Shown: positions 6,000 through 30,813, numbered from the stretch's first letter. The stretch: DNA of 64,000 bases from an uncultured Candidatus Saccharibacteria bacterium (GCA_964494105.1 CAZBQI010000001.1:3126-67125); one strand, 5' to 3'. Translations and numbers: made by a program. Notes: a model not told the origin generated them from the letters alone.

Positions 6000-7985
6000 T
6001 TAAAGACTACTCCCTCGCCCGCCGTCAGGGAAATCATCACAAAGTGTTGGTTCCCCAACACCGTCCGGCACAACCACGCCATTCGTTAGTGGGTTAACAG
6101 TACCATTGGCACTGCCCTGGACGCCACCTTGCTTCTGGACGTTAAAATGCAAGTGTGCGCCGGTGCTTCGACCAGTATTACCTGATTTGGCAATTTCTTG
6201 GCCCTTGGTAACAGTATCGCCTTCGGCAACCAAGATTTCGCTCAAGTGTCCGTAGAGTGTCCAAAAGCCATTGCCATGATTAATAACAATGGCGTTGCCA
6301 TACCCGCTAGTTAAGCTCCCGCTAATACCGGCAAATTCTACCGTGCCGGCATCAGCCGCAAAAACTTTACTACCAACGGGAACACCGATATCAAGCCCGG
6401 AGTGTCTGCCGTAACTCCGTACATCCCCCCAGCAGGCAGTGAGGGTTCCTGCTGGCTCGACTGGCCACTGGAACTGGCCACTGGCGGTGGCGCCGGGGCA
6501 GCCATTTGTATTACCCGCTGCCGGCGTGGTAGCGCCACCGGTACTAGGCGCTACGCCCGGATTACCTACTACTCCACCGTACAGCCAGTAGCCCCGCAGT
6601 ACGGTATTTACATACTCACTAGAGTGGTTATAGTGCCAAATGGCGTTCGAAATACTGTGGGCTTGCGCGCCACCGTTTGGATCGCCCAAGGGGGCACCAA
6701 TAATTCCGCCATTTGCCGCCAAATAATTAGCTGCGCCATACGCCGCGTCGGTTAAATTTTGAATATCAGCCACGCCATTCTCATCGCCGTCTACACCATA
6801 AGCTCTCCAGGTATCATTTAAGAACTGAAACGGTCCATTTGCCCCCTTGTCGGAACTTGCCCAAGGGCCTTCATGGTTAGGCCAGCCGGCACCATTTCCA
6901 CCGCCATGCTCGCCGTAGTGGAAAATTCCCGCAATCAACGCCGGCTCGACATTGAACCGCGCCCCGGCGGCGGTAAAAATACTATTATATGGCTCCGGTA
7001 CGCCATTTGGGCCGGTAGGCAGGGTGCCGGGAGGTAGCCCAGACCCGAGTGCGCTACAGGTACAACCATCCGCGGCGTCATTAGCGGCGGCATCACTTGG
7101 GTCGCTACCGCTACTGCCGGTAACCTCGGTAGCAATAAGTTCGGCGAGTGATACGGCGCCGGCGCTTGTGTTATGAATAAAATCGCCCTCTAGATAATCG
7201 TTGGTATCAGCCGGTGGGCTGGTGTTGGTACGCAGACTTACGTTGGTTGGGCCGGGAATGTTTTTCGGGTCACTGGATGCGCCAAAGTTATTTTTGTACT
7301 CACTAATCACGCTGTAGCCCAGGCTCCCCGCCTCGTCATAAATTACTCGGTTGCGTCGGGAGTATTCACCCGGGTTGGCAGTTGCGCCAACATCAACGTA
7401 GTAGTAATTGGCATCGGGGTTTAAATCTTTCAAGTCACCAACAAAGCTTCGCAGTCTGGTAGTAAAGTTGCTTTCTACTGTGGGTGGGTTCGTGCCCAAT
7501 TCAATAATAATGGCATCGGCTTGCCGGATGGCTTCGGCATCGGCCGTTAGAGCATCATCAATTGTTTGGGCGGGGGGTGCCCCAGGAAAATTAGCACCAC
7601 CCGAAGTGTACGATCTGCCCGGTACAGCGTTACGAGTTAGTTGCCAGTTATTGTTGCGAAACTTATCTTCGATAGTGCCTTTGGTTTGAAGATGGTAACC
7701 CTTGGAGTCACCAATTAAATAGGCTTTTTTAGTTTGCGCGTCGTCAACACTCGGGCCCTGTTGGGCATCGGCAATTTGCTCGGCACAAGCACCGTTATAG
7801 TGCTGGGTGTTGTGCAGGATGGCATGGATGTTAAGGTCGGTTATGGCCGACACCGACTGCAATGGCACCAGCCAAGTGCTAACTAGTGTCAGCATAAATA
7901 CGCCGATTACGAATTTATGTACGTGATTTATGGGTAAGGCTTGCGGACGAGAAAACAAGCCGATCATTTCTTTACCAGCTTCCAT
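6000..7985 (-). CDS. Secreted multi-domain peptidoglycan hydrolase: N-terminal SGNH/GDSL-like esterase, central lysozyme-like lytic transglycosylase, C-terminal M23 (LytM) endopeptidase; VirB1-like cell-wall opener for the adjacent T4SS
   Basis: 661 aa; signal/TM FVIGVFMLTLVSTWLVPLQSVSA; GDSL-like block YLIGDSKGY plus IIIELGTN; transglycosylase-like GPFQFLNDTWRAYGVDGDENG..DAAYGAANYL; M23 HSGLDIGVPVGSKVFAADAGTV..GYGNAIVINHGNGFWTLYGHL..TGRSTGAHLHF. Confidence 0.75.
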   Translation of the reverse strand: MEAGKEMIGLFSRPQALPINHVHKFVIGVFMLTLVSTWLVPLQSVSAITDLNIHAILHNTQHYNGACAEQIADAQQGPSVDDAQTKKAYLIGDSKGYHLQTKGTIEDKFRNNNWQLTRNAVPGRSYTSGGANFPGAPPAQTIDDALTADAEAIRQADAIIIELGTNPPTVESNFTTRLRSFVGDLKDLNPDANYYYVDVGATANPGEYSRRNRVIYDEAGSLGYSVISEYKNNFGASSDPKNIPGPTNVSLRTNTSPPADTNDYLEGDFIHNTSAGAVSLAELIATEVTGSSGSDPSDAAANDAADGCTCSALGSGLPPGTLPTGPNGVPEPYNSIFTAAGARFNVEPALIAGIFHYGEHGGGNGAGWPNHEGPWASSDKGANGPFQFLNDTWRAYGVDGDENGVADIQNLTDAAYGAANYLAANGGIIGAPLGDPNGGAQAHSISNAIWHYNHSSEYVNTVLRGYWLYGGVVGNPGVAPSTGGATTPAAGNTNGCPGATASGQFQWPVEPAGTLTACWGDVRSYGRHSGLDIGVPVGSKVFAADAGTVEFAGISGSLTSGYGNAIVINHGNGFWTLYGHLSEILVAEGDTVTKGQEIAKSGNTGRSTGAHLHFNVQKQGGVQGSANGTVNPLTNGVVVPDGVGEPTLCDDFPDGGRGSSL

Positions 7986-8959
7986 AGCTTATTTTCAAAA
8001 CCGGCCACTAAATCGGCCTTTGGCGTGTTGGAGATGTTGGTGGGTATGGGTTTATCGGCCAGCACGCCGTACTCGGTTGTAGTGTTGGTTTTTAAATCAA
8101 GAATTTGGTATTTTACATCGACCCCATTTGCACGAGCTATCTGCAGGATATCTCCATGTAGAGCAAAATTGGTCTGTTCTTCACTATCGATTTGGTTTTG
8201 GGCCGAATCAACCACAACCATTTTTCCGTTAGCATCGACTACCAATAGTTTGTCGTTTTCTCTTAGCAATAATGACTTCTTTTGACTATCTACGTTATAG
8301 ACTTCAACGCCCGCCATTTCTTTTACAGTGTTGCCCGCGGTATTAATAATTCGCAGGTTGCCAACTAGTGACTCGACCTCGTTGTAAGACATTAACCCAA
8401 TGTTTTCACCAATGGCGTAGACCTCTTCGATGTTTGTGCCAGTATAAGAATGTAATACTTGGCCGTCGATTGATTCAACCGTGATGGTACTGGTGCCATC
8501 AGGACTGGTTTTTAAAATAATTACACTACCGTCATTACGCCAGACTGCTTGGCTACCGGTGAATGAACGAAGTTGTTGTTTTGAGCCGACATCGAAAATT
8601 ACACCCAAATTCTCTCGCACTATGCTAAAGTGCTTAGAATCTTGACTGATATCTAAGGCGCCCTCGCCGTACGCACCTAAGTTGGTTTTGCTTTGCCCGT
8701 CATAAATAACCCACTCTTGCAGTTTGCTTTTATAGACTATCCCTCTGGCATAACTAATTAAGCGACGGCTTTGACTATGATTAAGATTGCTATCTTTGTT
8801 TTCTGGCGGGATGTAGGTGTTATCGACAAATTCCGCTTTTAGGGTGCCACGCTCCTCGGGTTTATTCGAGGGTCTAACGAAAATTGCCCAGGCTGTACCA
8901 AAGAGAATTAGAATTGCGACTAAAATTACGATAATTCGCTTGCGACTACTAGTTTCCAT
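7964..8959 (-). CDS. Membrane-anchored hypothetical protein (start taken at internal METSSRKR; the 9163 start of the ORF track would overlap the upstream gene by 215 nt)
   Basis: Basic stretch then TM (RKRIIVILVAILILFGTAWAIF) followed by ~300 aa beta-rich ectodomain; ATG at 8959 overlaps the stop of the 1061-aa gene by ~11 nt. Confidence 0.5.
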   Translation of the reverse strand: METSSRKRIIVILVAILILFGTAWAIFVRPSNKPEERGTLKAEFVDNTYIPPENKDSNLNHSQSRRLISYARGIVYKSKLQEWVIYDGQSKTNLGAYGEGALDISQDSKHFSIVRENLGVIFDVGSKQQLRSFTGSQAVWRNDGSVIILKTSPDGTSTITVESIDGQVLHSYTGTNIEEVYAIGENIGLMSYNEVESLVGNLRIINTAGNTVKEMAGVEVYNVDSQKKSLLLRENDKLLVVDANGKMVVVDSAQNQIDSEEQTNFALHGDILQIARANGVDVKYQILDLKTNTTTEYGVLADKPIPTNISNTPKADLVAGFENKLWKLVKK

Positions 8960-11900
8960 TGATCGACCAGTGCCAAGGTTCGCTCGGCAAGTTTTGAAAT
9001 CCATAATTTGTGGAGTTGGCTGCCAGCCATTGGTAGCAGGCAGTAGAGCGGTACCGGCAGTTATTAAAATCAATCGCCACTCCCCAGCCGTGATTTGATC
9101 TACCAACGGGCGCAGTTGGTACTCGACACTGGCTGGAAGATGTCCAGTTAGGCGGGCAACCATTGGCTTGGCCGGCGCGGAGCTGACCGGCCAGGTCGCG
9201 GAAGCCGCTACCGCTGAGGATTACACCAGCGTCTTCGGCGTCGCTGATCATATTCTGCACACACTGAGCAACGTCTTGGCGGACACCACGGTTGATGACA
9301 GCGTTGTTCCCTCGGCTGATAATTGGCTCAACTATCGGTATTCCGGGTGCGTTTCCGTCGGCGGGTACCGGCGCTGGCAAAGCCGGGCTTCCTGGTTGGG
9401 GCGAACAGCTAGTGGTAAAGGCCGGGCCTCCGCCTATGTTACCAACGGCAGCGCCCACGGCAGCGCCAGTGCCCAGCCCGCTGTCATCCTCTTCGTTTTG
9501 GAGCGACGTCGATTCCCGTAGTATGAATTCGTCTTTTTTATACAAAACAAAACGCTGGCCTATCACACTTTTTTGTAAGCTATCGCCCCCATCACCAAAA
9601 CAGTCAGCGTATTCAGAACTGTTAAACCGCACAATCATGCGTGCGGTGCTGTCTTTGAAGCACTTGCCATATTTTGCCTCGAGCGCATCGTACTGTGGTT
9701 CTACAATTTTTGCGTTTTCTCGGGGGCACCATGATTCATCGTCGATGCATTTATCAAATAAGTTCAACGGCACGCCGAATTGCTTAATGCCATAGGGGCC
9801 TTCACCCGAGGCCGCCCAAATTGGCTGGCTACGTTCGCTGTACGAGATAACTTTTTCGTGGACGAAATTCATAGGGCTAATGTTGGCAAGTGCGGTTGTG
9901 GCGAAAGTTCTGACTTCGCTTAGGCTGGTTGGCACGCGGATGACAAACTGGGCTGCCAGCGAGCGAATATTACCGGTGTCAAATATACGGGCGTACCAAC
10001 TGCGCGTGCTGTCTTTTTCGTACTGGATACGGTTAAGTTCGGCTGAGTATTCGTTAATCTGATCAGGCGTTAAGACCATGGCACCGGATTGCTTGTCCAT
10101 TTCTAGGCCAATTATCTCAGTCCCGGCACCGGCCTTGTTAAAGCCGGCCGACGCTTCTTCTTGCGAAGCGTTATCGGAGCCCGAGTAGGCCTCGACCATT
10201 CTGGGCATCAGCCAGTCGGTCATTAAGATTTGAACTGTTAGTGCTCCACCTGACTTAACGACTGTTGTTCCGAGCACCTTAATTGCTAGCTTCATTGTTT
10301 GCCATACGCCCTGAGCTACAACTTCCGACGTACTTAAACTCCATATTGCTAATAGAAATTCTACGAGACTAGTTATGGCCTGACCAATATAGCTTAGAAT
10401 GGCTCTACAGGTAGCCTCAAAAGCAAAGTCAGCTTTTGGACCAAGAGCATTCCAAGAAGTTTCGAGTATGTTCTTGATAGCTTCAGGTGATTCACCCATA
10501 GCTTTCTGAGGGTATAGTTCCTCGGGCATGTCGTACTTTTCGCCTTTCGAGGCCATCCCCAGGCCACTCCGATATTCGGTGGAATACTCAAAGTCGCCCA
10601 ATGAATCTACGCAGGCCTGGACTGCTTTCGAGGTAACATCCCCTTCTTTTTGCTGATCGGCACAATTAAATATGCTGTAGGAAAACCGGGCATAGTTTTC
10701 ACTGCGCTTTTCAATGACTTTCTCGATGTTATAGACGTAAGCGTCATATAATAAGCATATTGTAACTGCTACTGCATTCAGCACGCTAAGACCTCTCAAA
10801 ATGGCAAATGCAGGCCTAGCCTTAAATGATTCGATGATTCGCTCTAATATCCTGGTTCGCTGGGGGACGGCTGCTTCGCCGGCCGCATCAGCTGCTTCAT
10901 CCGTAAAATCACCGTTCTTTATGCGGTCTTGGTTCCTTTTTGTTTCGTCGTCAACCTCTTGGCTAAGGCTAACAACTCGATCAGGATCGCGTATGGCTAG
11001 GTCTTGACGTTTTTGATCGATATTTAGTGCTTCGACGCGGTTTTTTCCTTTAAATATTCTGCCTAAATCGTCAAACCGAATTAGTCGTAGTTTTAGTTGA
11101 CGTCGTATATCGAGCAGTAGTTTTCCGCGCCAGATTTTATTTCTCATGGCGTTGATAGATAATATTTCCTCCTCGAGTTCCTTAACAGCGGCCATTTTTT
11201 GCGCTCGAGTTGCATTCTCTGGTAATAAGTACTCGCGACCGGTGGTTAAGTTGCGATAACCACGAAAGTCATTGGTCAAGCGTAAGTTCCACTTGCGCCG
11301 GCTTTTCATAACTAGTTCTATGCCATCAGCTCGCCCAAGGCGCGTCAGTGCCGATTGCGGGTTATAGCCGACCAACAAATCTGTTACGCCCCCGCGCCGG
11401 ATAGGGTTTAGCCGACCGGTGCTTTCGGCCGACACCAAGCCCTCGCTGGCAACGAGCTGACCAACCCGCCTAGCTAGCTGTAGGTTAAAGCGAGCCAGGT
11501 GAACGTCAATCAAATATTGTTTAACGTGCTCGGGTTTGTAAAGGAACGCGAAAAAGAACAGCAATACCCCCATACCGGCGACCACACCCAGCACACCCCA
11601 CACACTAAAGCCCAGCAATTTGCGAACAAACATTTTTCGAGCTGTTTTTCGGACCGGGTGTTTTTTGTGCTTACTTTTTTCGTGATAGTAAGATTCGCTT
11701 GCATCATCGAAGAATTCTTTGGCCGATTCGCCTAGCAACCTGCCGGTTGCTTGTGAACCAACCGACTTAATCAATTTTTCTTTTAGCTTATTTCCGGCCT
11801 CTTTATCGGCGACGTCATCTTTGTTTTGATGGCTGGTAGCCAGCTGGTCGAACTGGGCAATTTCGCCTGGTTGCAGTGGCACGGTTGGCTTGTCGACCTG

Positions 11901-12134
11901 TGGGCTGGTAGGTGTACCTATTGGGTTGGTTGGTATGTTTGGGGCGCCTAGATTTGGAGTACCAATTTTTGGAGCTGATGATGTCTTAGCCGAGCGAAAC
12001 GGCACCCTCGGCTTAATTGGCATGCCGGGGTGACGGGGGGGCTTTATTGGTAGGGCTGAGTCACTGCCAAGGCCGGGAGTCTTGCGACGATCTTTGTCTG
12101 GATTGCGCTGGCGCAAGTCTCCGCCCTGATTCAT
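8949..12134 (-). CDS. Giant (1061 aa) single-pass membrane protein with Pro-rich cytoplasmic N-terminus, large extracytoplasmic region and a C-terminal LAS/M15B (VanY-like D-Ala-D-Ala carboxypeptidase) domain; T4SS-associated
   Basis: N-terminal PKIGTPNLGAPNIPTNPIGTPTSPQVDKPTVPL; TM LLGFSVWGVLGVVAGMGVLLFFFAFLY; C-terminal SGFRDLAGQ ... RSNHGWGVAIDF matching the M15 SxHxxGxAxD zinc-binding signature; stop overlaps VirB4 start region (operon). Confidence 0.65.
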   Translation of the reverse strand: MNQGGDLRQRNPDKDRRKTPGLGSDSALPIKPPRHPGMPIKPRVPFRSAKTSSAPKIGTPNLGAPNIPTNPIGTPTSPQVDKPTVPLQPGEIAQFDQLATSHQNKDDVADKEAGNKLKEKLIKSVGSQATGRLLGESAKEFFDDASESYYHEKSKHKKHPVRKTARKMFVRKLLGFSVWGVLGVVAGMGVLLFFFAFLYKPEHVKQYLIDVHLARFNLQLARRVGQLVASEGLVSAESTGRLNPIRRGGVTDLLVGYNPQSALTRLGRADGIELVMKSRRKWNLRLTNDFRGYRNLTTGREYLLPENATRAQKMAAVKELEEEILSINAMRNKIWRGKLLLDIRRQLKLRLIRFDDLGRIFKGKNRVEALNIDQKRQDLAIRDPDRVVSLSQEVDDETKRNQDRIKNGDFTDEAADAAGEAAVPQRTRILERIIESFKARPAFAILRGLSVLNAVAVTICLLYDAYVYNIEKVIEKRSENYARFSYSIFNCADQQKEGDVTSKAVQACVDSLGDFEYSTEYRSGLGMASKGEKYDMPEELYPQKAMGESPEAIKNILETSWNALGPKADFAFEATCRAILSYIGQAITSLVEFLLAIWSLSTSEVVAQGVWQTMKLAIKVLGTTVVKSGGALTVQILMTDWLMPRMVEAYSGSDNASQEEASAGFNKAGAGTEIIGLEMDKQSGAMVLTPDQINEYSAELNRIQYEKDSTRSWYARIFDTGNIRSLAAQFVIRVPTSLSEVRTFATTALANISPMNFVHEKVISYSERSQPIWAASGEGPYGIKQFGVPLNLFDKCIDDESWCPRENAKIVEPQYDALEAKYGKCFKDSTARMIVRFNSSEYADCFGDGGDSLQKSVIGQRFVLYKKDEFILRESTSLQNEEDDSGLGTGAAVGAAVGNIGGGPAFTTSCSPQPGSPALPAPVPADGNAPGIPIVEPIISRGNNAVINRGVRQDVAQCVQNMISDAEDAGVILSGSGFRDLAGQLRAGQANGCPPNWTSSSQCRVPTAPVGRSNHGWGVAIDFNNCRYRSTACYQWLAANSTNYGFQNLPSEPWHWSINGN

Positions 12135-14257
12135 GAGTGCGTCTGCCTTAAGTCAATAGTGGTGCCGGCTTTAACGTCATCAGACGGAGATTTCTGCGCC
12201 GGGGCTATTGGTGGCTGGGTAGCGTCTGCACTACTAGGGGCCGATGGCTCAACGTTAGGTGCTTTGCTATCCGGCTGATTATTTGCCGGTGCTTCCGTCT
12301 GCGCTGGTGGCTCAGATGATGGCGCCAGTTGTGGTCCGGGTAGTGTAATTTTTGGTTGGGGTTTTCCCTGTTCTTCGTTGATTTGCGCCACACTCGCAAT
12401 AACACTGGCGGTTGTAGCGCCTTCTTCTTCCATGGCTTCAATTGCCTTGATTTGCTGAGGGTTAGTGGTAATTAGTTCAGTTTCGGTACTTGAAGCATCG
12501 ATTCTGACGTGAACGTGATTGGAGCCGGCAAAAAATAATCCCTGGCCAACGGGGAATTGGCTGAGTTTTTTGTGTTCGGAATCGGTGAGTTTAAAGGTAC
12601 TGGCTACAATGTCTACCGCCGATGGTGCTTGCTTGAGGAGCAACTGGATGCTGGAGTTAGCAACCACTGCTCGGCCCATGCGCGAGCTTAGAAAGTCCTC
12701 GACGTCTTGAGAAATTGTGGTTAGCCCTAGGTTGTATTTACGGGCACGTTTAGCCACGCTAAACAGAAAATTAGCCGAATCTTCGTATCTCATTAATTGC
12801 CAGGCCTCGTCGACAATTAAATAGCGTTTGATTTGGTCGGATTTTACCCGATTCCAGATGTGATTGAGAATAATATACATAGCTACCGGTCGTAATTCGT
12901 CTTCGAGGTCGCGAATATTGAAAACAATAAAGTCGTTTTCGATGCCAACGTTTGATTGGTTCGAGAAAATACCCGAAAACGTCCCGGTAGTATACTTTCG
13001 TAGTCGCTGAGCCAACGCCGGACCATAACCTTCCATCGATACCAGTGTTTCGTATAGGTCGCCAATGGTTGGGGGTGTGGCCGAATGAGTAAGTGGATCG
13101 GCTGTAATGCCGGCTTTGGCGTAGGTGGCAATTAGTGCTTGGTCTAGGTCGCCTTCTTCGGCGGGGCTAATTTGTCCACCCATCATTAAGCGCAACATAC
13201 CATGAAGGGTAATGAGGTTTGCACGCAGGGAGTTTTCGGCCTCCTCTTGGTCGAGCACATGGGGTAAATCAAACGGGTTAAAATAGGTTTTGCTGGTTAG
13301 GCTTAAGCGCAGATAGGCTCCACCGACTGCTGTGCATAGCCTTTCGTATTCGTTTTCGGGATCGATAATTAGAATTTGAATACCCATCATCAAACTTCTA
13401 ATGGCTTCGAGTTTTACCGTAAAACTCTTACCGGCACCAGATTTTGCAAATACCACTAAGTTGGCATTTTCAAGGCTAAAGCGGTCAAAAATAACCAAGC
13501 CGTTATTATGCATATTAATGCCGTAAAGTATGCCGGCCTCTTGGCTTAAGTCGGCCGAGGTAAACGGAAAGCTGGTAGAAAGCGCACCCGTATCCATGTT
13601 GCGTTTTATTTGGAGTTGATCGGTTGCTTGTGGCACGGTTGAATTCAAACCCTGTTCCATTTGGACGGTGGCCGGCTTACTGTAAACAAGATTCTGACCA
13701 AATATCCCCTCAATTTTGTGCTGAGTGTAATCTAGCGCATCAAGTGTAGAGGCGTAGATGGTTAGGTACAAACAAAAACGAAAGAACCTTTCCTCGCCCA
13801 CCTGCAGGCTGTCTCGAAGCTGTTCAGCATCGTTAATGGCGGCTTCGGTGCCCGGGTCTCGCACTCGGCCTTTTTCGGCTAATATCTGCTCGGTGGCCTC
13901 TAGCTGACCAACTTTTTTGCGAAGGTTTTCTAGCACCACTCGGCTTTCAACCGGGTAGATAAACATGCTGACATCAATCGATTCGTCGATGTTAATTATT
14001 TCCGAAAGCCAGCCGGTGTAAATTTGTCTGGGATAGCCATAAACATAAATGGTGCGGGCAAAACGCGAACCGAGCTTAAAAAAGGAAGATTGAAATTCAA
14101 TAGAGGGTGGTGCGATAAAATCGCGCAAGCTGGTAACACCCTTGCGGAACTCTTCTTCAACCTCGCGCTTTTCCCGAAGTTGCTGTTGTTCGGCTTTCGT
14201 TAGGCTGGGTTTTTTACTAAAAAGGCCCATTTTTTTCTTCCCGTGCAAATAGCACAT
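12131..14257 (-). CDS. virB4: Type IV secretion ATPase VirB4/TrbE/CagE family (C-terminal ~700 aa portion; see upstream ORF and frameshift)
   Basis: Walker A VVFAKSGAGKSFTVK, Walker B LIVDEAWQLM, Gram-positive VirB4 N-domain motif DFIAPPSIEF..YPRQIYTGWL; Pro-rich C-terminal tail. Confidence 0.85.
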   Translation of the reverse strand: MCYLHGKKKMGLFSKKPSLTKAEQQQLREKREVEEEFRKGVTSLRDFIAPPSIEFQSSFFKLGSRFARTIYVYGYPRQIYTGWLSEIINIDESIDVSMFIYPVESRVVLENLRKKVGQLEATEQILAEKGRVRDPGTEAAINDAEQLRDSLQVGEERFFRFCLYLTIYASTLDALDYTQHKIEGIFGQNLVYSKPATVQMEQGLNSTVPQATDQLQIKRNMDTGALSTSFPFTSADLSQEAGILYGINMHNNGLVIFDRFSLENANLVVFAKSGAGKSFTVKLEAIRSLMMGIQILIIDPENEYERLCTAVGGAYLRLSLTSKTYFNPFDLPHVLDQEEAENSLRANLITLHGMLRLMMGGQISPAEEGDLDQALIATYAKAGITADPLTHSATPPTIGDLYETLVSMEGYGPALAQRLRKYTTGTFSGIFSNQSNVGIENDFIVFNIRDLEDELRPVAMYIILNHIWNRVKSDQIKRYLIVDEAWQLMRYEDSANFLFSVAKRARKYNLGLTTISQDVEDFLSSRMGRAVVANSSIQLLLKQAPSAVDIVASTFKLTDSEHKKLSQFPVGQGLFFAGSNHVHVRIDASSTETELITTNPQQIKAIEAMEEEGATTASVIASVAQINEEQGKPQPKITLPGPQLAPSSEPPAQTEAPANNQPDSKAPNVEPSAPSSADATQPPIAPAQKSPSDDVKAGTTIDLRQTHS

Positions 14258-15311: not shown

Positions 15312-15977
15312 TTAAACGCTTTTAGCGGGCGTTTTTGCCAATTGCATTTTGGCAATTGCCTGGGCTTTGACTGCGGTCTTGCTTGATGCTTCGAGCTTGG
15401 CAATATCTTTTGCGTCAGGGTTATTATGTACATCGAGCATGTCTTCGTACGAATGCACCTCTATCGGCTCTTCTGGCTTGGCATTTAAACTATCCATGCT
15501 GATTAGTCGATCACCGTCGTCGACCACCAAATTACCCACACCGACATTGATATTTGGGTCTTTGGCTATCCAGCCACGGCTATCAACAATTTTGGCTAGT
15601 TGTTCGAGCTGACCATGAACCTGTAAAATACTGACTTTATCTGGCAATATTGCCTTGAGTTTGGGTGGCACCAGATGAATATTCTCGTGCAGGCCTTCTG
15701 AATTCCACTTGCGAACCCTGGGTTTAAAGCGAAAATTTAGCGCCGCTAGTAAATATATTTCCACCGGCTGGTCTGGGCGACGGTAAATTCCCAGCACAAG
15801 GCATATTAGCGTTATCGGTAGTGGAATCAGTACTAGCGGTTGGTATAGCTTATAGAAAACGTAACACAGCGCTATGCCAATAGCGGCTATTACCAGAAAA
15901 ATAAATTGCTTGAAGGTAAATGGGCCAAGCAGTTTGTCTTCGGCTTCGACATCTTGGGGGATTTTATATTGAGCCAT
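15312..15977 (-). CDS. PrgI/VirB3-like small membrane protein with two N-terminal TM helices and a long soluble tail (start at internal MAQYKIP)
   Basis: MAQYKIPQDVEAEDKLLGPFTFKQFIFLVIAAIGIALCYVF..LVLIPLPITLICLVLGIY: N-terminal motif and 2-TM hairpin typical of Gram-positive VirB3 analogues; lies immediately upstream of VirB4. Confidence 0.5.
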   Translation of the reverse strand: MAQYKIPQDVEAEDKLLGPFTFKQFIFLVIAAIGIALCYVFYKLYQPLVLIPLPITLICLVLGIYRRPDQPVEIYLLAALNFRFKPRVRKWNSEGLHENIHLVPPKLKAILPDKVSILQVHGQLEQLAKIVDSRGWIAKDPNINVGVGNLVVDDGDRLISMDSLNAKPEEPIEVHSYEDMLDVHNNPDAKDIAKLEASSKTAVKAQAIAKMQLAKTPAKSV

Positions 15978-16173
15978 AACATAAGTATTATGTATCAAGT
16001 GTCAAGTATCAAGCGGATTGGTTCGGACTTGGGCCAATTAAAAATTAGATTATATGGAATCTCTAAACTTGTTACTACCGTCTACAAACTACCATTTGGT
16101 GGGTTGCTTTGATTCACAACCGGGCCGGCATCGTCCTAAATATGGGTTTTTTGGTACAGACCGCTTATGGTTA

Positions 16174-16680: not shown

Positions 16681-16769
16681 TTACGCTCCGTTATTTAGTG
16701 CTTTGCACCTATGATTTTACCATAAGCGTTGTGGTTCTGACTGCTCATAGGGCGCTATCTTGGCTCGAT

Positions 16770-20611: not shown

Positions 20612-20699
20612 ATTTCACCTTTGGTGGAATATAAAGCATCAACAAACAAACCCCAATATTCAAACAAATTCCAATTTCGAAATTTCAAGTCCACAAACA

Positions 20700-21107
20700 T
20701 CATTGGCTTTTTACTACGATTGCGTTAAATATTTTTACTAATTCTATAGCTTCTCGTTGCAGAACAGTCACCGTAGATTCTAACTCCCTTGGTGTGTCCA
20801 AAAGCCTTAGCCAATAACCGCTTTCTTTTGCTTCTTTTCTAGATATTTTTACTCGCATTACAAAGTCTTTCTTGCTAAGCGATTCATTTGCCTCTATATT
20901 ATTTGCGCCAACAGACCCAGATGAACGTACAAGCTGTTTGCAATCTTCAATATTTGCAGTTGTTTTTGAGAGTTTTTTTACAAGCGCACGGCAATCTTGT
21001 GCAAAACTGAATGTTCTTTCTTCTAAATCATATTGTTTACTATTTTGAACATTGGAGTTTAAGACTTGTTTGCTATTTGGAGTTTGAGTTTTGGAATTTG
21101 TGATCAT
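20700..21107 (-). CDS. Four-helix-bundle protein (TIGR02436-like; the family often encoded within 23S rRNA intervening sequences)
   Basis: 135 aa; SFAQDCRALVKKL..SSGSVGANNIEANES..KDFVMRVKISRKEAKESGYWLRLL matches the conserved core of this family. Confidence 0.65.
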   Translation of the reverse strand: MITNSKTQTPNSKQVLNSNVQNSKQYDLEERTFSFAQDCRALVKKLSKTTANIEDCKQLVRSSGSVGANNIEANESLSKKDFVMRVKISRKEAKESGYWLRLLDTPRELESTVTVLQREAIELVKIFNAIVVKSQ

Positions 21108-22444: not shown

Positions 22445-23239
22445 TTAAGCAGAAAAATCGTCACTTGGGTCTTGATGTGTTTCGGTATAAATCGTCGTGC
22501 CGGTTTCTTCGTCGAGCCTCAGGGTTGTAATTGATATCACCGGCCCATCAGTTGCAAGGATATCGCCATAAAAACCACTTGCGCTCAGGCTTCCTGGCGT
22601 AGCTGTTCGTCGCACTAAGTGTGAGCTATAAAGTGCTCGCACCATAAGCTCACCGGGGTTTCCTGGCAAAACAGCAAAATCATCATTTGGGCCATCAACA
22701 TTATCTGGGTCATCTTTGCCGTCAAGCAAGAATTCCGGGCGGACAAAGAATGGGTACGTCGCAGCAAATTCTACATGTGTCGGGTTTAAATCAGCTACAG
22801 ATACGCCAAAAACCGCCGCTAACAATTCGGGGCTACGCAAGTTAATGGCAGCGTAATGATTATTTATGGCTGCCATCGCAGCTTGAACCGGGTCTGAGGT
22901 GTCTACCTCTGAAAGTGTAACTGGATAATCTGTTTCGCGGAGCAAAGCTTTCTCGTTTTCGGATAAAGTGCTGGATGCTATAGCTACTTCCCTGGCTTCT
23001 GGTGTCGCTTCTACCCGGCTAGACACTAATGGTTCAAGTGGTGCACTCTCTTCGCTATCTTGGCTTCTCTCAAACAGAGTGTATCCACCCAAAGCGGCGC
23101 CACCAATACCAATTAATGCGCCGGTTGTGCCAAGCCCAATAAGAAAGTGTCGCCGTGTCATATCTGGTGCCGTGGGTTCGGTACCATCAAAACGATGTGG
23201 GCCAATGTCGGGGGCGCCAGGTGTTGTTGCGATAGCCAT
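22445..23239 (-). CDS. Tat-signal (twin-arginine) exported hypothetical protein
   Basis: 264 aa; MTRRHFLIGLGTTGALIGIGGAALG matches the S/T-RRxFLK Tat motif followed by a hydrophobic h-region. Confidence 0.55.
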   Translation of the reverse strand: MAIATTPGAPDIGPHRFDGTEPTAPDMTRRHFLIGLGTTGALIGIGGAALGGYTLFERSQDSEESAPLEPLVSSRVEATPEAREVAIASSTLSENEKALLRETDYPVTLSEVDTSDPVQAAMAAINNHYAAINLRSPELLAAVFGVSVADLNPTHVEFAATYPFFVRPEFLLDGKDDPDNVDGPNDDFAVLPGNPGELMVRALYSSHLVRRTATPGSLSASGFYGDILATDGPVISITTLRLDEETGTTIYTETHQDPSDDFSA

Positions 23240-23314
23240 AAAAGTTGCCTTTTTACACGAAAACTATACCATTATCACAAATAAAATGCAAGCACATATT
23301 TGTCAATAACATTT

Positions 23315-23325
23315 TAAGCTATAAT
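23315..23325 (+). promoter_or_regulatory. Extended -10 element TAAGCTATAAT upstream of the first pilin paralog (possible -35 TTGTCA at 23300-23305, 14-nt spacer)
   Basis: Consensus TATAAT at 23320-23325; identical 11-mer recurs upstream of the sixth pilin paralog at 25867-25877. Confidence 0.45.
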
Positions 23326-23344
23326 ATGGTAAGAAAGATAGCTT

Positions 23345-23767
23345 ATGCTTAAAACCACAAATCAAAAATCTTTCATTTTTGCGCTCATCGGTCTAGCCAT
23401 TGTTAGCTGTTTTTTGCTGGCCACGTTAGTTAGTTCTTCTTTTGTCGTGGCTGCGCCCACACCGACCCCCGTCGGGGGTTCAGCTAGTGGTTGCACCGAG
23501 TTGGCGATTGATGTGGGTGCGGCAGCTTGTGGGAAAAATCGACTGATGAAATATATAACCGCTTTGGTGCGGTTTCTTTCGCTGGGGGTTGGAATAATCG
23601 TAGTGATTATGATTATTGTGGGTGGCATTCAATACACTAGCTCTGGCGGTGATGCTGGGGCGGTAGCAGCAGCCAAGAGCAGGATATTTAATGCTATTTT
23701 GGCACTGCTGTTGTATATTTTTACCATTGCCATATTAAACTGGCTGGTCCCAGGGGGAATAGTTTAA
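23345..23767 (+). CDS. VirB2/TrbC-like T4SS pilin paralog 1 (signal peptide, Cys pair, C-terminal 2-TM hairpin)
   Basis: 140 aa; CTELAIDVGAAAC; C-terminal GVGIIVVIMIIVGGIQYTSSGGDAGAVAAAKSRIFNAILALLLYIFTIAI = two hydrophobic helices around a GG loop. Confidence 0.55.
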   Translation: MLKTTNQKSFIFALIGLAIVSCFLLATLVSSSFVVAAPTPTPVGGSASGCTELAIDVGAAACGKNRLMKYITALVRFLSLGVGIIVVIMIIVGGIQYTSSGGDAGAVAAAKSRIFNAILALLLYIFTIAILNWLVPGGIV

Positions 23768-23835
23768 ATGTGTATTATATTTGCGTATCGATTGCAATTA
23801 ACTGAGATGATACCTGGCTTAAGGAATAGTTTTAC

Positions 23836-24603
23836 ATGAAAACAGCTCAAAAAATCTATCTCTTATTAGTGATAAGTGCTTTTACATTTGGCATGAGTTT
23901 TGTTTCTAGTTTTATCTCTAGCCCGCCTGTAAAAGCTGCTTCGGAGCTACAATTTCACTTCTTTTGTCGTAGTGGCGCCGCAGTAGTCAAAGAAACAGTC
24001 AGTGGTGGCACAGCAATAAAATGTGAAGACGGCTCTGCTCTTGGTAGGCACATTGGTGATGACGAGGAAAATATATTCACCACTTTTAATGTCGAATGCG
24101 CCAGAGGTACACCCAATTTAGATTCGGTTTCTAATATATTTAGCTGTGATGGTGGCGGGGGTGCTGAACCACAGGTAACAAAAGTAGATGATGATAGTGC
24201 AGGCCAGCCACCACCTGGCTCTGGAGGTGGCTCTGGTGGAGGTGGTTCTGGCGGCGGATCTGGAGGCGGTGGTACCAGTGGCGTTTGTGGTAGTGGCGAC
24301 ATGTTATTTGGAATAATTCCAACTTGGTACAAGTACCTGGAGTTTTCACCCGATTGCACAGTAATAATAAGCAAGATAGATGACTTTTTAAAAATCGGCG
24401 GGGCGGTAATTGAAATTGTGCTACGTCTGGGGGCAATAGCGGCTATCGGGTTCATCATCTTTGGTGGTTTTCGCTTTGTTACTAGCATGGGCGACCCCGA
24501 AGGCATCAAAAACGCGCGGAATACCATCATTAATGCTGTAATTGGTTTGGCTTTAATGATTCTTTCTACCACTATCGTTAGCTTTATAGCGGGGAGGCTG
24601 TAA
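23836..24603 (+). CDS. VirB2/TrbC-like pilin paralog 2 with long variable region and Gly/Ser linker
   Basis: 255 aa; signal peptide; GSGGGSGGGGSGGGSGGGGTSG linker; C-terminal AIAAIGFIIFGGFRFVTSMGDPEGIKNARNTIINAVIGLALMIL. Confidence 0.55.
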   Translation: MKTAQKIYLLLVISAFTFGMSFVSSFISSPPVKAASELQFHFFCRSGAAVVKETVSGGTAIKCEDGSALGRHIGDDEENIFTTFNVECARGTPNLDSVSNIFSCDGGGGAEPQVTKVDDDSAGQPPPGSGGGSGGGGSGGGSGGGGTSGVCGSGDMLFGIIPTWYKYLEFSPDCTVIISKIDDFLKIGGAVIEIVLRLGAIAAIGFIIFGGFRFVTSMGDPEGIKNARNTIINAVIGLALMILSTTIVSFIAGRL

Positions 24604-24890
24604 TGTTTGAAAACACAATTTTTTATACGCTTGCCCAGCTAAGGGGTGCGCATGGGTTGCCGAACCCCGACACATCTAACGTGCTCGAGACCGTGCTTAA
24701 GACTTCTTTTGTAATAATTGGGGCGCTCGCAGTGATATTTGTAATTATTGGCGGGTTTCAATACGTTCTGTCGGGTGGCAATCCGAATAATACCAGTCGG
24801 GCCAAAGAGACAATTATCTATGCCATTGTGGGTTTGGTGGTTTCGCTTCTGGCATTTAGCATAGTAGACTTTGTGGTAGGAAAAGTATGA
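24603..24890 (+). CDS. VirB2/TrbC-like pilin paralog 3 (short form)
   Basis: 95 aa; FVIIGALAVIFVIIGGFQYVLSGGNPNNTSRAKETIIYAIVGLVVSLLAF; start overlaps the preceding stop (ATGA...). Confidence 0.55.
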   Translation: MFENTIFYTLAQLRGAHGLPNPDTSNVLETVLKTSFVIIGALAVIFVIIGGFQYVLSGGNPNNTSRAKETIIYAIVGLVVSLLAFSIVDFVVGKV

Positions 24891-25261
24891 AAAAAGCAGT
24901 GATAGCCTTATTCGTTCTAGTGATTGCCGGTGCGCTTTCGCTGGGTTCTGTATGGGCCGACACCAAAACCGAGGTTTGCGAAGGGCTTAAGCAAGGTAGT
25001 CCGAGCGTACAGTGCGATCCGGATAGCTCCGATAAGATTATTGTTGATACAATTGATAAGGTTTTAGGGGTGTTGTCGTTTGCAATTGGGGCGCTCTCGG
25101 TATTGATGATAATCTTTGGTGGGTTTCGCTACGTTGTCTCGGGTGGTGACAGCTCGGGGGTAGAAGGCGCGAAAAATACCATATTGTACGCCATTGTTGG
25201 TTTAGTTATTGCCTTTTTGGCGCGGCCGATAATCGTTTTCGTGATTGGGTGGTTTGTTTAA
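24887..25261 (+). CDS. VirB2/TrbC-like pilin paralog 4
   Basis: 124 aa; signal peptide; CEGLKQGSPSVQC; LSVLMIIFGGFRYVVSGGDSSGVEGAKNTILYAIVGLVIAFL. Confidence 0.6.
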   Translation: MKKAVIALFVLVIAGALSLGSVWADTKTEVCEGLKQGSPSVQCDPDSSDKIIVDTIDKVLGVLSFAIGALSVLMIIFGGFRYVVSGGDSSGVEGAKNTILYAIVGLVIAFLARPIIVFVIGWFV

Positions 25262-25843
25262 ATGAAGTTACTTACTGCTGTTTGTTGCCTGATGTTTTTT
25301 GGTTTATTCGTGATGAGTATGCCGGTATTTGCCCAGGACAGAAAAATAACCCCTCGACCAGGTGCTACAACTCCTGCACCTGAGGCAACTCCGGGCGTAC
25401 CCGAAGCAACCCCACCAGCAAGTGGTGGCGGAGGTTCAGGTAGCGGTAGCGGAAGCGGAAGTGGCGGAGGCAGTACTAATCCCTTTGCTGCCGAAATTTG
25501 CGAAGGCGCCAAGAATGGCGCCGGCAGTGATTGTTCCGGCTCGTCTTTTCTAAAAGGCCTAAAGAATATTGCCAATATTATCTTGTTTCTAATTGGGGCG
25601 GTAGCGGTAATAATGATAATTATCGGCGGGTTTCGCTATGTTGTCTCGGGTGGTGACAGCTCGGGGGTGGAAGGCGCGAAAAACACCATATTGTACGCTG
25701 TGATTGGCCTAATAGTGGCGGCGCTTTCTTTTGCGATTGTAAATTTCGTTATAACATCAATTTCCGGTTCCGGTAGTGGCGGGGGGACCGGGAGTACACC
25801 GGGTAGCTCAAGCGGACCACCCGGGGGGTCCAGTGGACCATAA
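25262..25843 (+). CDS. VirB2/TrbC-like pilin paralog 5 with Gly/Ser linkers on both sides of the pilin core
   Basis: 193 aa; signal peptide; SGGGGSGSGSGSGSGGGS; CEGAKNGAGSDC; VAVIMIIIGGFRYVVSGGDSSGVEGAKNTILYAVIGLIVAAL; C-terminal SGSGSGGGTGSTPGSSSGPPGGSSGP. Confidence 0.6.
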   Translation: MKLLTAVCCLMFFGLFVMSMPVFAQDRKITPRPGATTPAPEATPGVPEATPPASGGGGSGSGSGSGSGGGSTNPFAAEICEGAKNGAGSDCSGSSFLKGLKNIANIILFLIGAVAVIMIIIGGFRYVVSGGDSSGVEGAKNTILYAVIGLIVAALSFAIVNFVITSISGSGSGGGTGSTPGSSSGPPGGSSGP

Positions 25844-25847
25844 GGTG

Positions 25848-25877
25848 TTGCATATCAGCAAAAGCATAAGCTATAAT
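25848..25877 (+). promoter_or_regulatory. Sigma70-like promoter (TTGCAT -35 at 25848-25853, 18-nt spacer, TATAAT -10 at 25872-25877 within TAAGCTATAAT) for pilin paralog 6; RBS AAGGAG at 25888-25893, GTG start
   Basis: Read directly from sequence. Confidence 0.5.
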
Positions 25878-25901
25878 GTTTTTAAATAAGGAGTACTTAC
25901 A

Positions 25902-26333
25902 GTGAAAGCCCTAAAAAATAAAATCTCGAAATTGCTTACTATAACCGCCAGCGCCGGTATTTTCTTTATGTTGTTATTCGCCCCGGTGTTTGCACAGGAT
26001 GTAGCATGCGATCCAACAACCGGCTCTAGCGGCCTGCAGAACGGCGCCAACTGTGCTCAAGCGTCGGGTACCTCAGATCAATTGTTCGGTGAAGACGGTC
26101 TGTTTAAGAAGGTCAGTAATATCTTGGTCTTCTTGGTGGGTGCGGTATCGGTTATCATGCTGATTATCGGTGGTTTTCGCTATGTGGTCTCGGGTGGCGA
26201 CAGCTCAGGGGTGGAAAGCGCGAAAAACACCATCCTCTATGCCATCGTTGGTATTGTGGTGGCGTTTCTGTCATATGCCGCCGTCAACTTCGTTATCGGT
26301 GGACTTTCTAATACTACCGGCGCTGGCGGTTAA
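25902..26333 (+). CDS. VirB2/TrbC-like pilin paralog 6 (GTG start)
   Basis: 143 aa; signal peptide; CDPTTGSSGLQNGANC; VSVIMLIIGGFRYVVSGGDSSGVESAKNTILYAIVGIVVAFL. Confidence 0.6.
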   Translation: MKALKNKISKLLTITASAGIFFMLLFAPVFAQDVACDPTTGSSGLQNGANCAQASGTSDQLFGEDGLFKKVSNILVFLVGAVSVIMLIIGGFRYVVSGGDSSGVESAKNTILYAIVGIVVAFLSYAAVNFVIGGLSNTTGAGG

Positions 26334-26375: not shown

Positions 26376-26408
26376 TAAAAAAACCCCGCCAAATTTGGCG
26401 GGGTTTTT
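26376..26408. terminator. Bidirectional rho-independent terminator between the pilin array (+) and hsp20 (-)
   Basis: aaaaaaccccgccaaatttggcggggttttt: 7-bp GC stem flanked by A-tract and T-tract. Confidence 0.8.
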
Positions 26409-26433: not shown

Positions 26434-26955
26434 CTAGTCCTTGATGGCAATTTTCTTTACTTTGTCTTGTTCTGTTTTGGGGATGCGCACCGTCAGCATG
26501 CCATCTTTTAGTTCGGCTTCGGCTCGCTCCTCTTTTACCTGAACTGGCAAAATAATCGAACGCGAGAATTCACCCCAATAGCATTCTTGTACAAAAAAGT
26601 CTCCGGCTTGAACATCTTGGCTAGAGCTTCGTTTACCCCGCACAGTGAGAGTGTTCTCAACAATGCTTAGGTCGATGTCGCCCTTAGCTACGCCGGGAAC
26701 CGGCGCTACAACGTAGATGTCCTCTTTGGTTTGGTATACATCAACTGCAAGCTGGCCGGGTACTTCGGTGTCTTCGAAGAAATCATCACTACTGCTGGCG
26801 GTATCTGCTTCTGCTTCGTCGACTACGCTTGTGTCGTCATCGTCGTCATCGTTTAAAAAGTCATCGTCTAACTGATCCATAAATAAATCGTCATCGTCTT
26901 TGGTTTTTTGTGCCACGAGGTGCCTCCTTTGTCTATGCAACAATATTTTGTGCAA
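26434..26955 (-). CDS. Hsp20/alpha-crystallin family small heat-shock protein with highly acidic N-terminal extension
   Basis: 173 aa; alpha-crystallin core LAVDVYQTKEDIYVVAPVPGVAKGDIDLSIVENTLTVRGKR..AELKDGMLTVRIPK; N-terminal DDDDLFMDQLDDDFLNDDDDDD. Confidence 0.85.
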   Translation of the reverse strand: MHKILLHRQRRHLVAQKTKDDDDLFMDQLDDDFLNDDDDDDTSVVDEAEADTASSSDDFFEDTEVPGQLAVDVYQTKEDIYVVAPVPGVAKGDIDLSIVENTLTVRGKRSSSQDVQAGDFFVQECYWGEFSRSIILPVQVKEERAEAELKDGMLTVRIPKTEQDKVKKIAIKD

Positions 26956-27168: not shown

Positions 27169-27855
27169 TTGCTACTAGATACTGATGTGGTGATAATTGA
27201 CAGTGTTCTTGATTTAATTGCTCCATTTTCTTGCGTTAAATGCCACAACGAAGGCGAATTAGTCTGCGATAGCTGTAAACGGACATTATCTAAGCCCAAA
27301 AAATCAACCTGTGCCCTGTGCAATTCGCTTACCAACAACTTTCGCTTATGCAAACGTTGCCAACATCAAACCAAGCTTCGAGGGGTTTTGGTGGCATCAC
27401 ATTATGAGGGCGAGGTAAAACAGCTGATTCAAATGCTCAAATACGAACGAGCTATGCGGGCGGCTAATTACTTGGCAGAGTTGCTAGTTCCGCAGGTAAA
27501 GCCCCGAGATTATGATTATATTTCTTGGGCACCGGTGAGTTCACGACGGTTTCGCCAGCGCGGGTATAATCAGGCTAAGTTGATTGCTAAACAAATTGCC
27601 GCTCAAACCAAAGTTCCCTATATAGAAACACTTGGGCGCCTGGGGCACGCGCGCCAAGTAGGAACCGGTCGCAAGCTAAGAACACAGCAGTTAAAGGGCA
27701 GTATGTACGCAGTTAAACCAGAGCGCTTTAAAAGCAAACGAATAGTAATAGTTGATGATGTGCTAACAACCGGGGCAACCCTAAGCGAGTGCGCGAATGT
27801 GCTCATGGCAGCGGGCGCAAAATCGGTTTGGGGCGCAGCCGTTGCCAAGCACTAA
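27169..27855 (+). CDS. comFC: ComF family protein (ComFC-like phosphoribosyltransferase with N-terminal zinc ribbon); DNA-uptake/competence-associated
   Basis: 228 aa; four CxxC pairs (CVKC..CDSC..CALC..CKRC); PRTase motif RIVIVDDVLTTGATLSECANVL. Confidence 0.75.
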   Translation: MLLDTDVVIIDSVLDLIAPFSCVKCHNEGELVCDSCKRTLSKPKKSTCALCNSLTNNFRLCKRCQHQTKLRGVLVASHYEGEVKQLIQMLKYERAMRAANYLAELLVPQVKPRDYDYISWAPVSSRRFRQRGYNQAKLIAKQIAAQTKVPYIETLGRLGHARQVGTGRKLRTQQLKGSMYAVKPERFKSKRIVIVDDVLTTGATLSECANVLMAAGAKSVWGAAVAKH

Positions 27856-27881: not shown

Positions 27882-27971
27882 GGAGGGGTGACCGAGCGGT
27901 TGATGGTGCTAGTCTTGAAAACTAGTGTGCCGGAAACGGTACCGTGGGTTCGAATCCCACCCCCTCCGCCA
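27882..27971 (+). tRNA. tRNA-Ser (anticodon TGA), CCA encoded
   Basis: ggaggggtg acc gagcggttgat ggt; anticodon stem-loop ctagt-cttgaaa-actag; long variable arm; T-arm gtggg-ttcgaat-cccac; 3' cccctccgcca. Confidence 0.9.
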
Positions 27972-30541: not shown

Positions 30542-30636
30542 AAAATTTACACCTTTGAACGCATAGTAACACAGAATTGATATGCTACAATAACCTCTGT
30601 TACTTTGCGAACATTTACTTTTGCGAAGCATGCAGA

Positions 30637-30729
30637 TGGAGAGGTACCCAAGAGGCTGAAGGGGCTGGTTTGCTAAACCGGTAGGTCGGGGAAACCTGGC
30701 GCGGGAGTTCGAATCTCCCCCTCTCCGCC
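30637..30729 (+). tRNA. tRNA-Ser (anticodon GCT), CCA encoded
   Basis: ggagaggtacccaagaggctgaagg...ctggt-ttgctaa-accgg (one G-U pair), long variable arm, gagttcgaatctc T-arm, cctctccgcca. Confidence 0.85.
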
Positions 30730-30813
30730 AATTATTGATGGCAATAAACATCGTGAGTATGCACCGAGATAACGAGAGAGATAAACGCTTATGTCTGCTG
30801 TATAATACTTTGT

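Follow-up and report, generated by a model that had tools for sequence, protein, structure and literature searches.

A six-gene pilin array of the chromosomal type IV secretion system in a Saccharibacteria genome and its probable division into position-specific subunit classes

We analyzed a stretch of 64,000 nucleotides (nt) from an uncultured Candidatus Saccharibacteria bacterium (GCA_964494105.1 CAZBQI010000001.1:3126-67125), which is referred to here as the window. Positions 23345 to 26333 of the window contain six tandem open reading frames (ORFs) on the plus strand. The original prediction, which was made from the sequence alone, described them as VirB2/TrbC-like pilin paralogs of a type IV secretion system (T4SS), each with a variable N-region and a C-terminal two-helix hairpin, and likened them to a surface-variation system. 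The structural part of this description is, apart from small corrections, borne out by the ORFs, by the domain that they share and by an AlphaFold2 model of one of them. The six genes, named p1 to p6 in their order of occurrence, are as follows.

23345..23767, plus strand: p1, class-1 pilin of 140 amino acids (aa); an ORF with a signal peptide, a Cys pair (CTELAIDVGAAAC) and a hairpin with an SSGGD loop; the most divergent member
23836..24603, plus strand: p2, class-2 pilin of 255 aa; signal peptide, N-terminal extension, Gly/Ser linker, the signature C-x(n)-IPTWY-x(n)-C and a hairpin with an SMGD loop
24603..24890, plus strand: p3, short class-3 pilin of 95 aa; without signal peptide and without Cys; SGGN loop; its start overlaps the p2 stop (TAATG)
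24887..25261, plus strand: p4, class-4 pilin of 124 aa; signal peptide, Cys pair (CEGLKQGSPSVQC), SGGD loop; 4-nt overlap with the p3 stop
25262..25843, plus strand: p5, class-5 pilin of 193 aa; signal peptide, a linker rich in Pro/Thr and in Gly/Ser, Cys pair (CEGAKNGAGSDC), SGGD loop and a Gly/Ser-rich tail at the C-terminus; abuts the p4 stop
25902..26333, plus strand: p6, class-6 pilin of 143 aa; GTG start behind AAGGAG; Cys pair (CDPTTGSSGLQNGANC); the most conserved class

All six ORFs are complete with start codons and are tightly packed in one operon, in which the initiation signal seen is the AAGGAG before p6. They share a C-terminal domain of ~67 residues with the invariant columns G, I, GG, S, G, A, I and A, and the similarity among the six paralogs is homology, not chance. 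Across the six, the loop of the hairpin follows the consensus S-x-G-[DN]; the S-G-G-D loop that had been assigned to all of them is found in four, while p3 has SGGN and p2 has SMGD. The four Cys pairs quoted originally (i.e., those of p1, p4, p5 and p6) are all present, and p2 contains six additional Cys, not listed at that time, which probably form three pairs. The Gly/Ser linkers that had been noticed in two paralogs are those of p2 and p5. In the AlphaFold2 model of p6, the sole paralog modeled (95 homologues; mean predicted local distance difference test score, pLDDT, of 80), a signal helix and a short helix inside the Cys loop precede a hairpin formed by helices 67-96 and 101-140, whose pLDDT is 91-97.

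The whole-protein gathering cut-off of the PF18895 (T4SS_pilin) profile is 26.6 bits, and p2, p3, p4, p5 and p6 scored 36.8, 46.9, 37.4, 38.2 and 36.6 bits, respectively. With p2 to p6 above the cut-off, the profile searches did not place the array in an unrelated family. The score of p1 was 20.9 bits (E 3.8e-4), which is below the cut-off; p1 was aligned to the same region of the profile and possesses the invariant columns. In NCBIfam, the best match for all six was Mbov_0395 (NF045849), with scores of 17-36 bits relative to a cut-off of 40 and nearly the whole 80-position profile aligned. At least 2824 homologues of p6 were found, some of which were named "pilin [Patescibacteria group bacterium]," and the best related reference-genome loci were all from metagenome-assembled genomes (MAGs) of Saccharibacteria or Patescibacteria. 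The possibility that the six were unrelated small membrane proteins, such as holin-like or immunity proteins, was ruled out by the PF18895 scores, the synteny with T4SS genes and the literature. The assignment of the six genes as an array of VirB2/TrbC-like T4SS pilin paralogs, as predicted originally, is supported by PF18895, which identifies five of them, by sub-threshold matches to the TrbC profile, by the hairpin fold and by the neighboring T4SS.

To compare the array with those of other genomes, pilins were located with a hidden Markov model (HMM) of the hairpin in 80 Saccharibacteria loci, where six was the mode of the array size (43/80 loci) and 68/80 loci had 5-7 tandem pilins. An all-against-all comparison was then carried out with the 264 pilins of 44 six-gene arrays (i.e., that of the window and 43 others). 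For 249/264 pilins, the nearest relative in another genome occupied the same array position, and for 260/264 an ortholog was closer than any paralog, the four exceptions being positions 4 and 5 of two genomes, of which the window is one. At the position of the most divergent member, the nearest neighbor was another position-1 pilin in 43/44 arrays, and the position-1 pilins from other genomes matched p1 best in 37/43 arrays. The same-position hairpin identity between genomes was 0.44, 0.43, 0.44, 0.55, 0.64 and 0.78 for positions 1 to 6, respectively, while the cross-position hairpin identity for positions 1 and 2 was 0.25-0.37. A best-hit table centered on the window blurred this positional orthology, as p4 and p5 of the window are atypical, and the matter was resolved by the all-against-all analysis.

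The positions also differ in their N-regions. In these 44 arrays, all but one of the position-1 pilins had a signal and an even Cys count, position 2 had a signal and a Cys pair in 38/44, and position 4 had both in 41/44; the pair at position 2 frames FP[AT]WY in the examples displayed and IPTWY in the window. At positions 5 and 6 a signal was present, together with a Cys pair in roughly half of the arrays. Across nearly all arrays, the Cys numbers of positions 1, 2, and 4 are even, which agrees with the earlier idea of disulfide-stabilized loops, the disulfides being predicted by eye. Position 3 was without Cys in 38/44 arrays and without a hydrophobic N-terminal segment in 39/44. The same is true of p3, so that the signal peptide originally attributed to all six proteins holds for five, in each of which a hydrophobic N-terminal segment is followed by V-x-A, a putative cleavage site judged by eye. 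Gene junctions are similar across the arrays as well, with overlaps at 1-2, 2-3 and 3-4 and a median gap of 69 nt before gene 6, which is the sole consistently large one.

Between species, the N-regions were 17-33% identical and the hairpins 40-78%. The exposed N-regions thus appear to evolve fast, but within six fixed classes, and judged from these comparisons the six genes are six old orthologous classes in a fixed order. Given that the classes are position-specific and have conserved signatures, including three near-universal Cys pairs and one class without a signal, a defined multi-subunit structure is favored over a variable repertoire. For the role of major subunit, class 6 is the best candidate. 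Lineage-specific additions are found in two paralogs of the window. The N-terminal extension of p2 (~110 aa, with four Cys) lies, together with the linker, at residues ~35-150 (23938-24290), ahead of the class-2 Cys loop; the N-region of p2 is the longest of the 44 position-2 pilins, and a homologue search of 5.8 billion proteins with the extension gave no match. The N-linker of p5 (Pro/Thr-rich and Gly/Ser-rich) and its C-terminal Gly/Ser/Pro tail of 27 residues are at or near the maximum among the 44 position-5 pilins; linker and tail might serve as flexible spacers or glycosylation sites. Two contigs with typical Saccharibacteria six-pilin arrays, L016 and L035, are filed under Magnetospirillaceae and Verrucomicrobiia MAGs, which are probably binning errors.

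An operon of this type is already published, and it is essential in the one species tested by transposon-insertion sequencing (Tn-seq), Southlakia epibionticum. The tables of Wang et al. (2023, Cell; PMC10633639) list SEML1_0014 to SEML1_0019 of S. epibionticum ML1 as six plus-strand genes of 399, 558, 312, 381, 384, and 417 nt; SEML1_0014-0016, 0018 and 0019 are annotated with PF18895, and a row just before 0018 also lists PF18895. In the supplement, all six were scored GD/ES/ES by Tn-seq (i.e., essential). The products of these genes have 132/185/103/126/127/138 aa, compared to 140/255/95/124/193/143 aa in the window. In both genomes, six tandem PF18895 genes are on the strand opposite to that of the T4SS genes and close to dnaA/dnaN; the window begins with dnaA, dnaN and a recF-like gene. 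The flanking genes that are relevant to this comparison are the following.

6000..12134, minus strand: two cell-wall hydrolase genes of the T4SS cluster, which correspond to SEML1_0006/SEML1_0007 in size and domains
6000-7985, minus strand: M23 + SLT protein, cell-wall hydrolase of the T4SS cluster
7964-9163, minus strand: 399-aa ORF without Pfam match, between both hydrolase genes and overlapping them
8949-12134, minus strand: 1061-aa protein with a VanY-type C-terminus, cell-wall hydrolase of the T4SS cluster
12131..14257, minus strand: VirB4-type ATPase, the presumed pilin assembly motor (PF19044 TraG P-loop, 3.4e-28; AAA_10, 1.1e-10); counterpart of SEML1_0008
15312..15998, minus strand: PrgI/VirB3-like membrane protein (PF12666, 1.8e-14); counterpart of SEML1_0010
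22445..23239, minus strand: 264-aa protein with a twin-arginine-like signal (TRRHFLIGLG) and without Pfam match, divergent from the pilin operon
26434-26955, minus strand: hsp20, synteny marker 3' of the array
27169-27855, plus strand: ComF-like phosphoribosyltransferase, synteny marker 3' of the array
27882-27971, plus strand: tRNA-Ser, synteny marker 3' of the array

Upstream of the pilins, both loci have a protein with a twin-arginine translocation (TAT) signal, PrgI, VirB4 and two wall hydrolases. From its position, size and signal, we infer that the 264-aa protein is the counterpart of SEML1_0012, for which a TAT signal and an NTF2/VirB8-like fold are given in the published data (PMC10633639). 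The ML1 pilins are followed by SEML1_0020-0022, listed as Hsp20 (minus strand), a K02242 ComFC gene and a tRNA-Ser (PMC10633639), and hsp20 on the opposite strand, a ComF-like gene and tRNA-Ser are found in the same order 3' of the array in the window. The two loci differ in that p2 and p5 of the window are 66-70 aa longer (i.e., Cys-rich extension, Gly/Ser linkers, and C-terminal tail) and that genes for PEBP, PP2C-like, 23S rRNA intervening-sequence and 409-aa secreted proteins lie between T4SS core and pilins in the window. A seventh pilin is found on the opposite strand, 1.5-4 kb downstream, in about half of the related loci (e.g., 9438-9854 in L012 and 8041-8574 in L013). Its ML1 counterpart is SEML1_0024, a further downstream pilin that is scored non-essential in the same tables (PMC10633639); the hairpin HMM search found no such SEML1_0024-like gene anywhere in the 64 kb of the window.

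As size, order and flanks agree gene for gene, the array is assigned to the SEML1_0014-0019 type. We consider it quite probable that it is the known six-gene pilin operon of the Saccharibacteria chromosomal T4SS, in which six non-redundant subunit classes of a pilus or conduit are encoded rather than variants. Most likely, the structure that these six subunits form is a pilus or conduit that spans the cell wall. Few envelope machines of Saccharibacteria have been shown to be essential for their epibiotic life, and the T4SS with its pilin array belongs to these few. The window adds no new kind of system; it is the cross-genome comparison that narrows the options toward a defined multi-subunit structure, and the position classes provide specific targets for the knock-down of single genes, for mutation of the cysteines and for structural studies. 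In a 2024 perspective, the function of the Saccharibacteria T4SS and pilin array was called "completely unknown" (PMC11665869).

In the proposed mechanism, transcription would start at a promoter upstream of p1, possibly also at a second promoter before p6, and would end at a hairpin at 26379-26408. Translation of p2 to p5 is probably coupled, as suggested by the overlaps and the zero gap seen in the sequence. Five of the products would enter the membrane via Sec and be cut by signal peptidase at V-x-A, and p3 would insert without a cleavable signal. The mature protein is predicted to form a membrane hairpin of two helices, whose short S-x-G-[DN] loop would be cytoplasmic and whose N-terminal segment would lie outside the cell; in most classes, this segment would be stabilized by a disulfide. 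The upstream machine of the VirB4/VirB3/VirB6 type would then extract the hairpins from the membrane and build from them a pilus or conduit that spans the wall and makes contact with the host bacterium. The six proteins may act as non-redundant structural classes, e.g., major and minor subunits, that are not interchangeable, with class 6 as the best major candidate. The exposed N-regions would diverge quickly between species, and the cores of classes 4-6 may occasionally undergo gene conversion, e.g., between p4 and p5 of the window.

A more specific version, which we offer only tentatively, is that six obligatory classes, none able to replace another, co-assemble in a defined order or stoichiometry and thereby form a VirB2-type heteropolymer, as a filament or conduit through the monoderm wall, in which class 6 would be the major subunit, the signal-less class 3 a primer or base, and the Cys-loop classes 1 and 2 (FP[AT]WY) the tip or host contact. 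Such a heteropolymer is compatible with the constant gene order, with the signatures that are specific to each class and with the published finding that all six genes are essential. To our knowledge, no heteromeric VirB2-type structure of such kind has been described.

The diderm VirB2/TrbC pilins resemble the proteins of the array in having a signal peptide (a predicted one in five of the six proteins here), two hydrophobic helices, a short polar loop and VirB3-/VirB4-type genes nearby. They differ in that the cell here is a monoderm and in the N-terminal Cys loops found here. The virB operon of the Ti plasmid annotates one VirB2 major pilin and one VirB5 minor pilin, compared to six classes in the array, and no VirB5 homologue was found. 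A tblastn search of 72,556 plasmids with p6 gave no match, so that the array is not closely linked to known conjugative plasmids.

Several observations weigh against our interpretation, and the first concern this relationship to VirB2. Relative to a gathering cut-off of 27.9 bits, the PF04956 (TrbC) profile gave 24.4 bits for p6, 22.5 bits for p5 and 19.9 bits for p3, all sub-threshold and aligned at profile positions 35-97 of 98, and it did not match p1, p2 or p4. The hhalign comparison of a 95-sequence profile with Agrobacterium tumefaciens VirB2 (pTiC58) was not significant (probability 0.45%, E 0.13, 13 columns), the target being a single sequence and the power low. Foldseek searches of the PDB with the p6 model returned generic helical hairpins only, all with E > 1, which is uninformative for or against VirB2, and the 95-homologue profile found only a chance match to MacB (E 0.26) among PDB sequences. 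By profile, hhalign, fold and PDB searches, homology to the classical VirB2 is not demonstrable here. Furthermore, the match between the window and SEML1_0014-0019 is one of synteny, gene sizes and tabulated Pfam annotations, not of alignment, and polarity within the operon could account for part of the essentiality that Tn-seq assigned to the upstream genes. The predictions of signal peptidase sites and disulfides were made by eye only, and assembly into a filament is argued by analogy with the VirB2 paradigm. According to a 2025 FEMS review, in which arrays of this kind are also described, no pilus has been observed for any Patescibacteria T4SS.

A rather unlikely alternative is that no extended pilus is made and that the six hairpin proteins remain in or near the cytoplasmic membrane, where they would be a heteromeric component of the T4SS translocation channel or of its wall-spanning stalk, comparable to the small pilin-like proteins in the conjugation systems of wall-less and Gram-positive bacteria. 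The sub-threshold best match of all six to Mbov_0395 is in its favor, as are the class without a signal peptide and the monoderm type of the T4SS (i.e., PrgI, TraG P-loop VirB4 and wall hydrolases), which the published descriptions present as generally pilus-less (PMC10633639; PMC12102498); a fixed set of six essential classes also suits a defined complex better than a homopolymer. The extracytoplasmic N-regions, however, look surface-exposed, with their conserved putative disulfide loops, long linkers and fast divergence, and the 2025 FEMS review favors a pilus-like structure, albeit as a possibility only. Mbov_0395, a family of pilin-like conjugal transfer proteins in the monoderm T4SS of Mycoplasma integrative and conjugative elements, is usually encoded by a single gene on the mobile element, in contrast to the chromosomal six-gene operon of the window.

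The remaining alternative is the one put forward originally, in which the array is a repertoire of exchangeable surface subunits that recombine via a shared 3' segment for antigenic or host-range variation, as proposed for the VirB2 arrays of Anaplasma and Bartonella. The DNA that p4, p5 and p6 have in common, which the original prediction considered long enough for gene conversion between copies, lies at the following places.

25078..25191, plus strand: p4 copy of the shared core DNA (GGFRYVVSGGDSSGVEGAKNTILYA region), 87.7% identical over 114 nt to 25585-25698 (BLAST); likely gene-conversion tract with p5
25585..25698, plus strand: p5 copy of the shared core DNA, the BLAST match to the p4 copy, with a silent-codon breakpoint
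26166..26251, plus strand: p6 copy of the shared core DNA, 83-84% identical to the p4 and p5 copies when in register

The sharing is real, and the identity is somewhat lower than the ~90% reported for the ~85-bp segments, i.e., 88, 83, and 84% when the segments are in register (25115-25200, 25622-25707 and 26166-26251); the coordinates first quoted for copies 2 and 3 were 3-4 nt out of register, at which the identity is ~30%. At identical amino acids, p4 and p5 use the same codon at 26/31 silent codons up to ...NTILYA and at 1/9 after it, a breakpoint with a maximum chi-square permutation p of 0.0002. For p6 relative to p4 or p5, the maximum chi-square test detected no significant silent-site breakpoint. 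When the longest run of shared silent codons was tested by permutation instead, no significant result was obtained (p 0.17-0.99). Consistent with some exchange are the within-genome silent codon identity, which was 0.47-0.48 for pairs 4-5 and 5-6 vs. 0.35-0.39 for pairs 1-2, 1-6 and 2-6, and the fact that the window is one of two genomes whose p4 and p5 are nearer to a paralog than to any ortholog. Thus, the gene conversion suggested earlier is partly supported, for p4 and p5, and its effect is to homogenize the conserved core (concerted evolution) rather than to diversify the exposed part. Direct repeats of at least 60 nt are confined to the 3' core; further 5' only pairs of 22-25 nt were found, such as are often met by chance in such scans, and the signal-peptide regions have no DNA similarity between copies.

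Four metagenome contigs from several accessions (L001-L004) were 100% identical to the window over 2.6-3.3 kb of the array, and another (L005) had 1 mismatch in 650 nt, in a small sample in which some contigs may share one project. Mosaic recombinant copies, for which the original prediction had proposed a check, were not seen in L001-L004. A scan of JGI metagenome contigs with an exact degenerate pattern for the shared core gave 0 matches, and the nearest relative of p6 with flanking DNA (P0003, 73% identity, L086) is on a contig that carries the last pilin only. Among the features of a pilE/pilS-type system of Neisseria, the array lacks silent or truncated donors, conserved flanks on two sides, differences between strains in the small sample compared, and, apart from positions 4 and 5, paralogs closer than orthologs.

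Quiñonero-Coronel et al. (2025, Microb Genom; PMC12102498) reported 441 VirB2 arrays of 2-11 genes in 383 Patescibacteria assemblies, most abundant in Saccharimonadia and Microgenomatia, with a mean identity of 25% and a maximum of 54%. Like the array of the window, whose within-array BLAST identity of 27-54% is inside their range, these are tandem PF18895/PF04956 pilins near virB4 and the replication origin. In the text of that paper, variability is stressed, and the authors suggest that it might help adaptation to different host strains, whereas the six position-specific classes found here, which are not met in that text, point to fixed, non-redundant roles. The virB2 arrays of Anaplasma phagocytophilum and Bartonella, as described in the same text (PMC12102498), are likewise divergent copies in a row in a host-dependent organism; a role in antigenic variation or in a range of host interactions has been proposed for them, while the window has old orthologous classes that are conserved throughout a bacterial class and whose six counterparts were all scored essential in one model. 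In addition to the suggestion about host strains, a repertoire would account for N-regions that are far more divergent than the hairpins between species, for the p4/p5 recombination footprint and excess silent identity at positions 4-6, for the lineage-specific insertions in p2 and p5 and for array sizes that vary from 5 to 8. It is nevertheless highly improbable, and the reading of the array as an antigenic or host-range cassette is not supported, because the positional classes are fixed (249/264) with their class-specific N-region features kept, Cys loops included, all copies are complete within one operon with none silent or truncated, the sharing is on one side only and the conversion tract is within the conserved core rather than the exposed region, four contigs are identical over the array, and the six S. 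epibionticum counterparts are scored essential in the published supplement (PMC10633639), which is unexpected for redundant variants.

Candidate regulatory elements were located around and within the operon.

23316..23325, plus strand: AAGCTATAAT, located 19 nt ahead of the p1 ATG; candidate -10 element of the promoter for the operon, putative in function
25868..25877, plus strand: second copy of AAGCTATAAT, lying in the 58-nt gap that precedes p6 and 24 nt ahead of its start; candidate internal promoter, also putative in function
26379..26408, no strand assigned: intrinsic terminator hairpin with an A-run, a CCCCGCC/GGCGGGG stem and a T-run, between the convergent p6 and hsp20

The exact 10-mer AAGCTATAAT has two copies only in 64 kb, one before p1 and one before p6, and a promoter-like site was found at 23300-23327. 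The terminator hairpin has a folding energy of -29.9 kcal/mol (z = -4.96), and 0/200 shuffles folded as well; it ends the pilin operon and could also serve hsp20 on the other strand. A scan for consensus terminators missed this hairpin.

On the T4SS side, the VirB4 and PrgI/VirB3 genes lie 7-11 kb upstream of the pilins on the opposite strand. The VirB6 candidate is a 592-aa membrane protein at 18833-20611, which has a faint TrbL match only (E 0.56), and no relaxase or coupling protein was found among the T4SS-side ORFs scanned, the scan reaching ~30.8 kb, a point of agreement with the arrays of Quiñonero-Coronel et al. (PMC12102498). The genes between PrgI and the pilins (16174-21107, minus strand) include some that are unexpected in a T4SS cluster, i.e., those for a PEBP-family protein, a PP2C-like protein of 576 aa, the 592-aa membrane protein and a 23S rRNA intervening-sequence protein. 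Next to them, between the T4SS genes and the pilins, is the gene for a secreted protein of 409 aa (21110-22339, minus strand), which has a poly-Gly linker and a Cys pair as well as one hydrophobic helix at the C-terminus and gave no Pfam match; the ML1 table has no gene of such size at the matching place.

Further downstream, the window contains tRNA genes at 27882-27971, 30638-30730, 32143-32219, 32510-32599, and 57958-58049, of which four are tRNA-Ser with different anticodons and one is tRNA-Arg. The tRNA-Ser at 30638-30730 is inside the longest ORF at 29723-30835 on the other strand, so that the real start of this ORF is probably further downstream.

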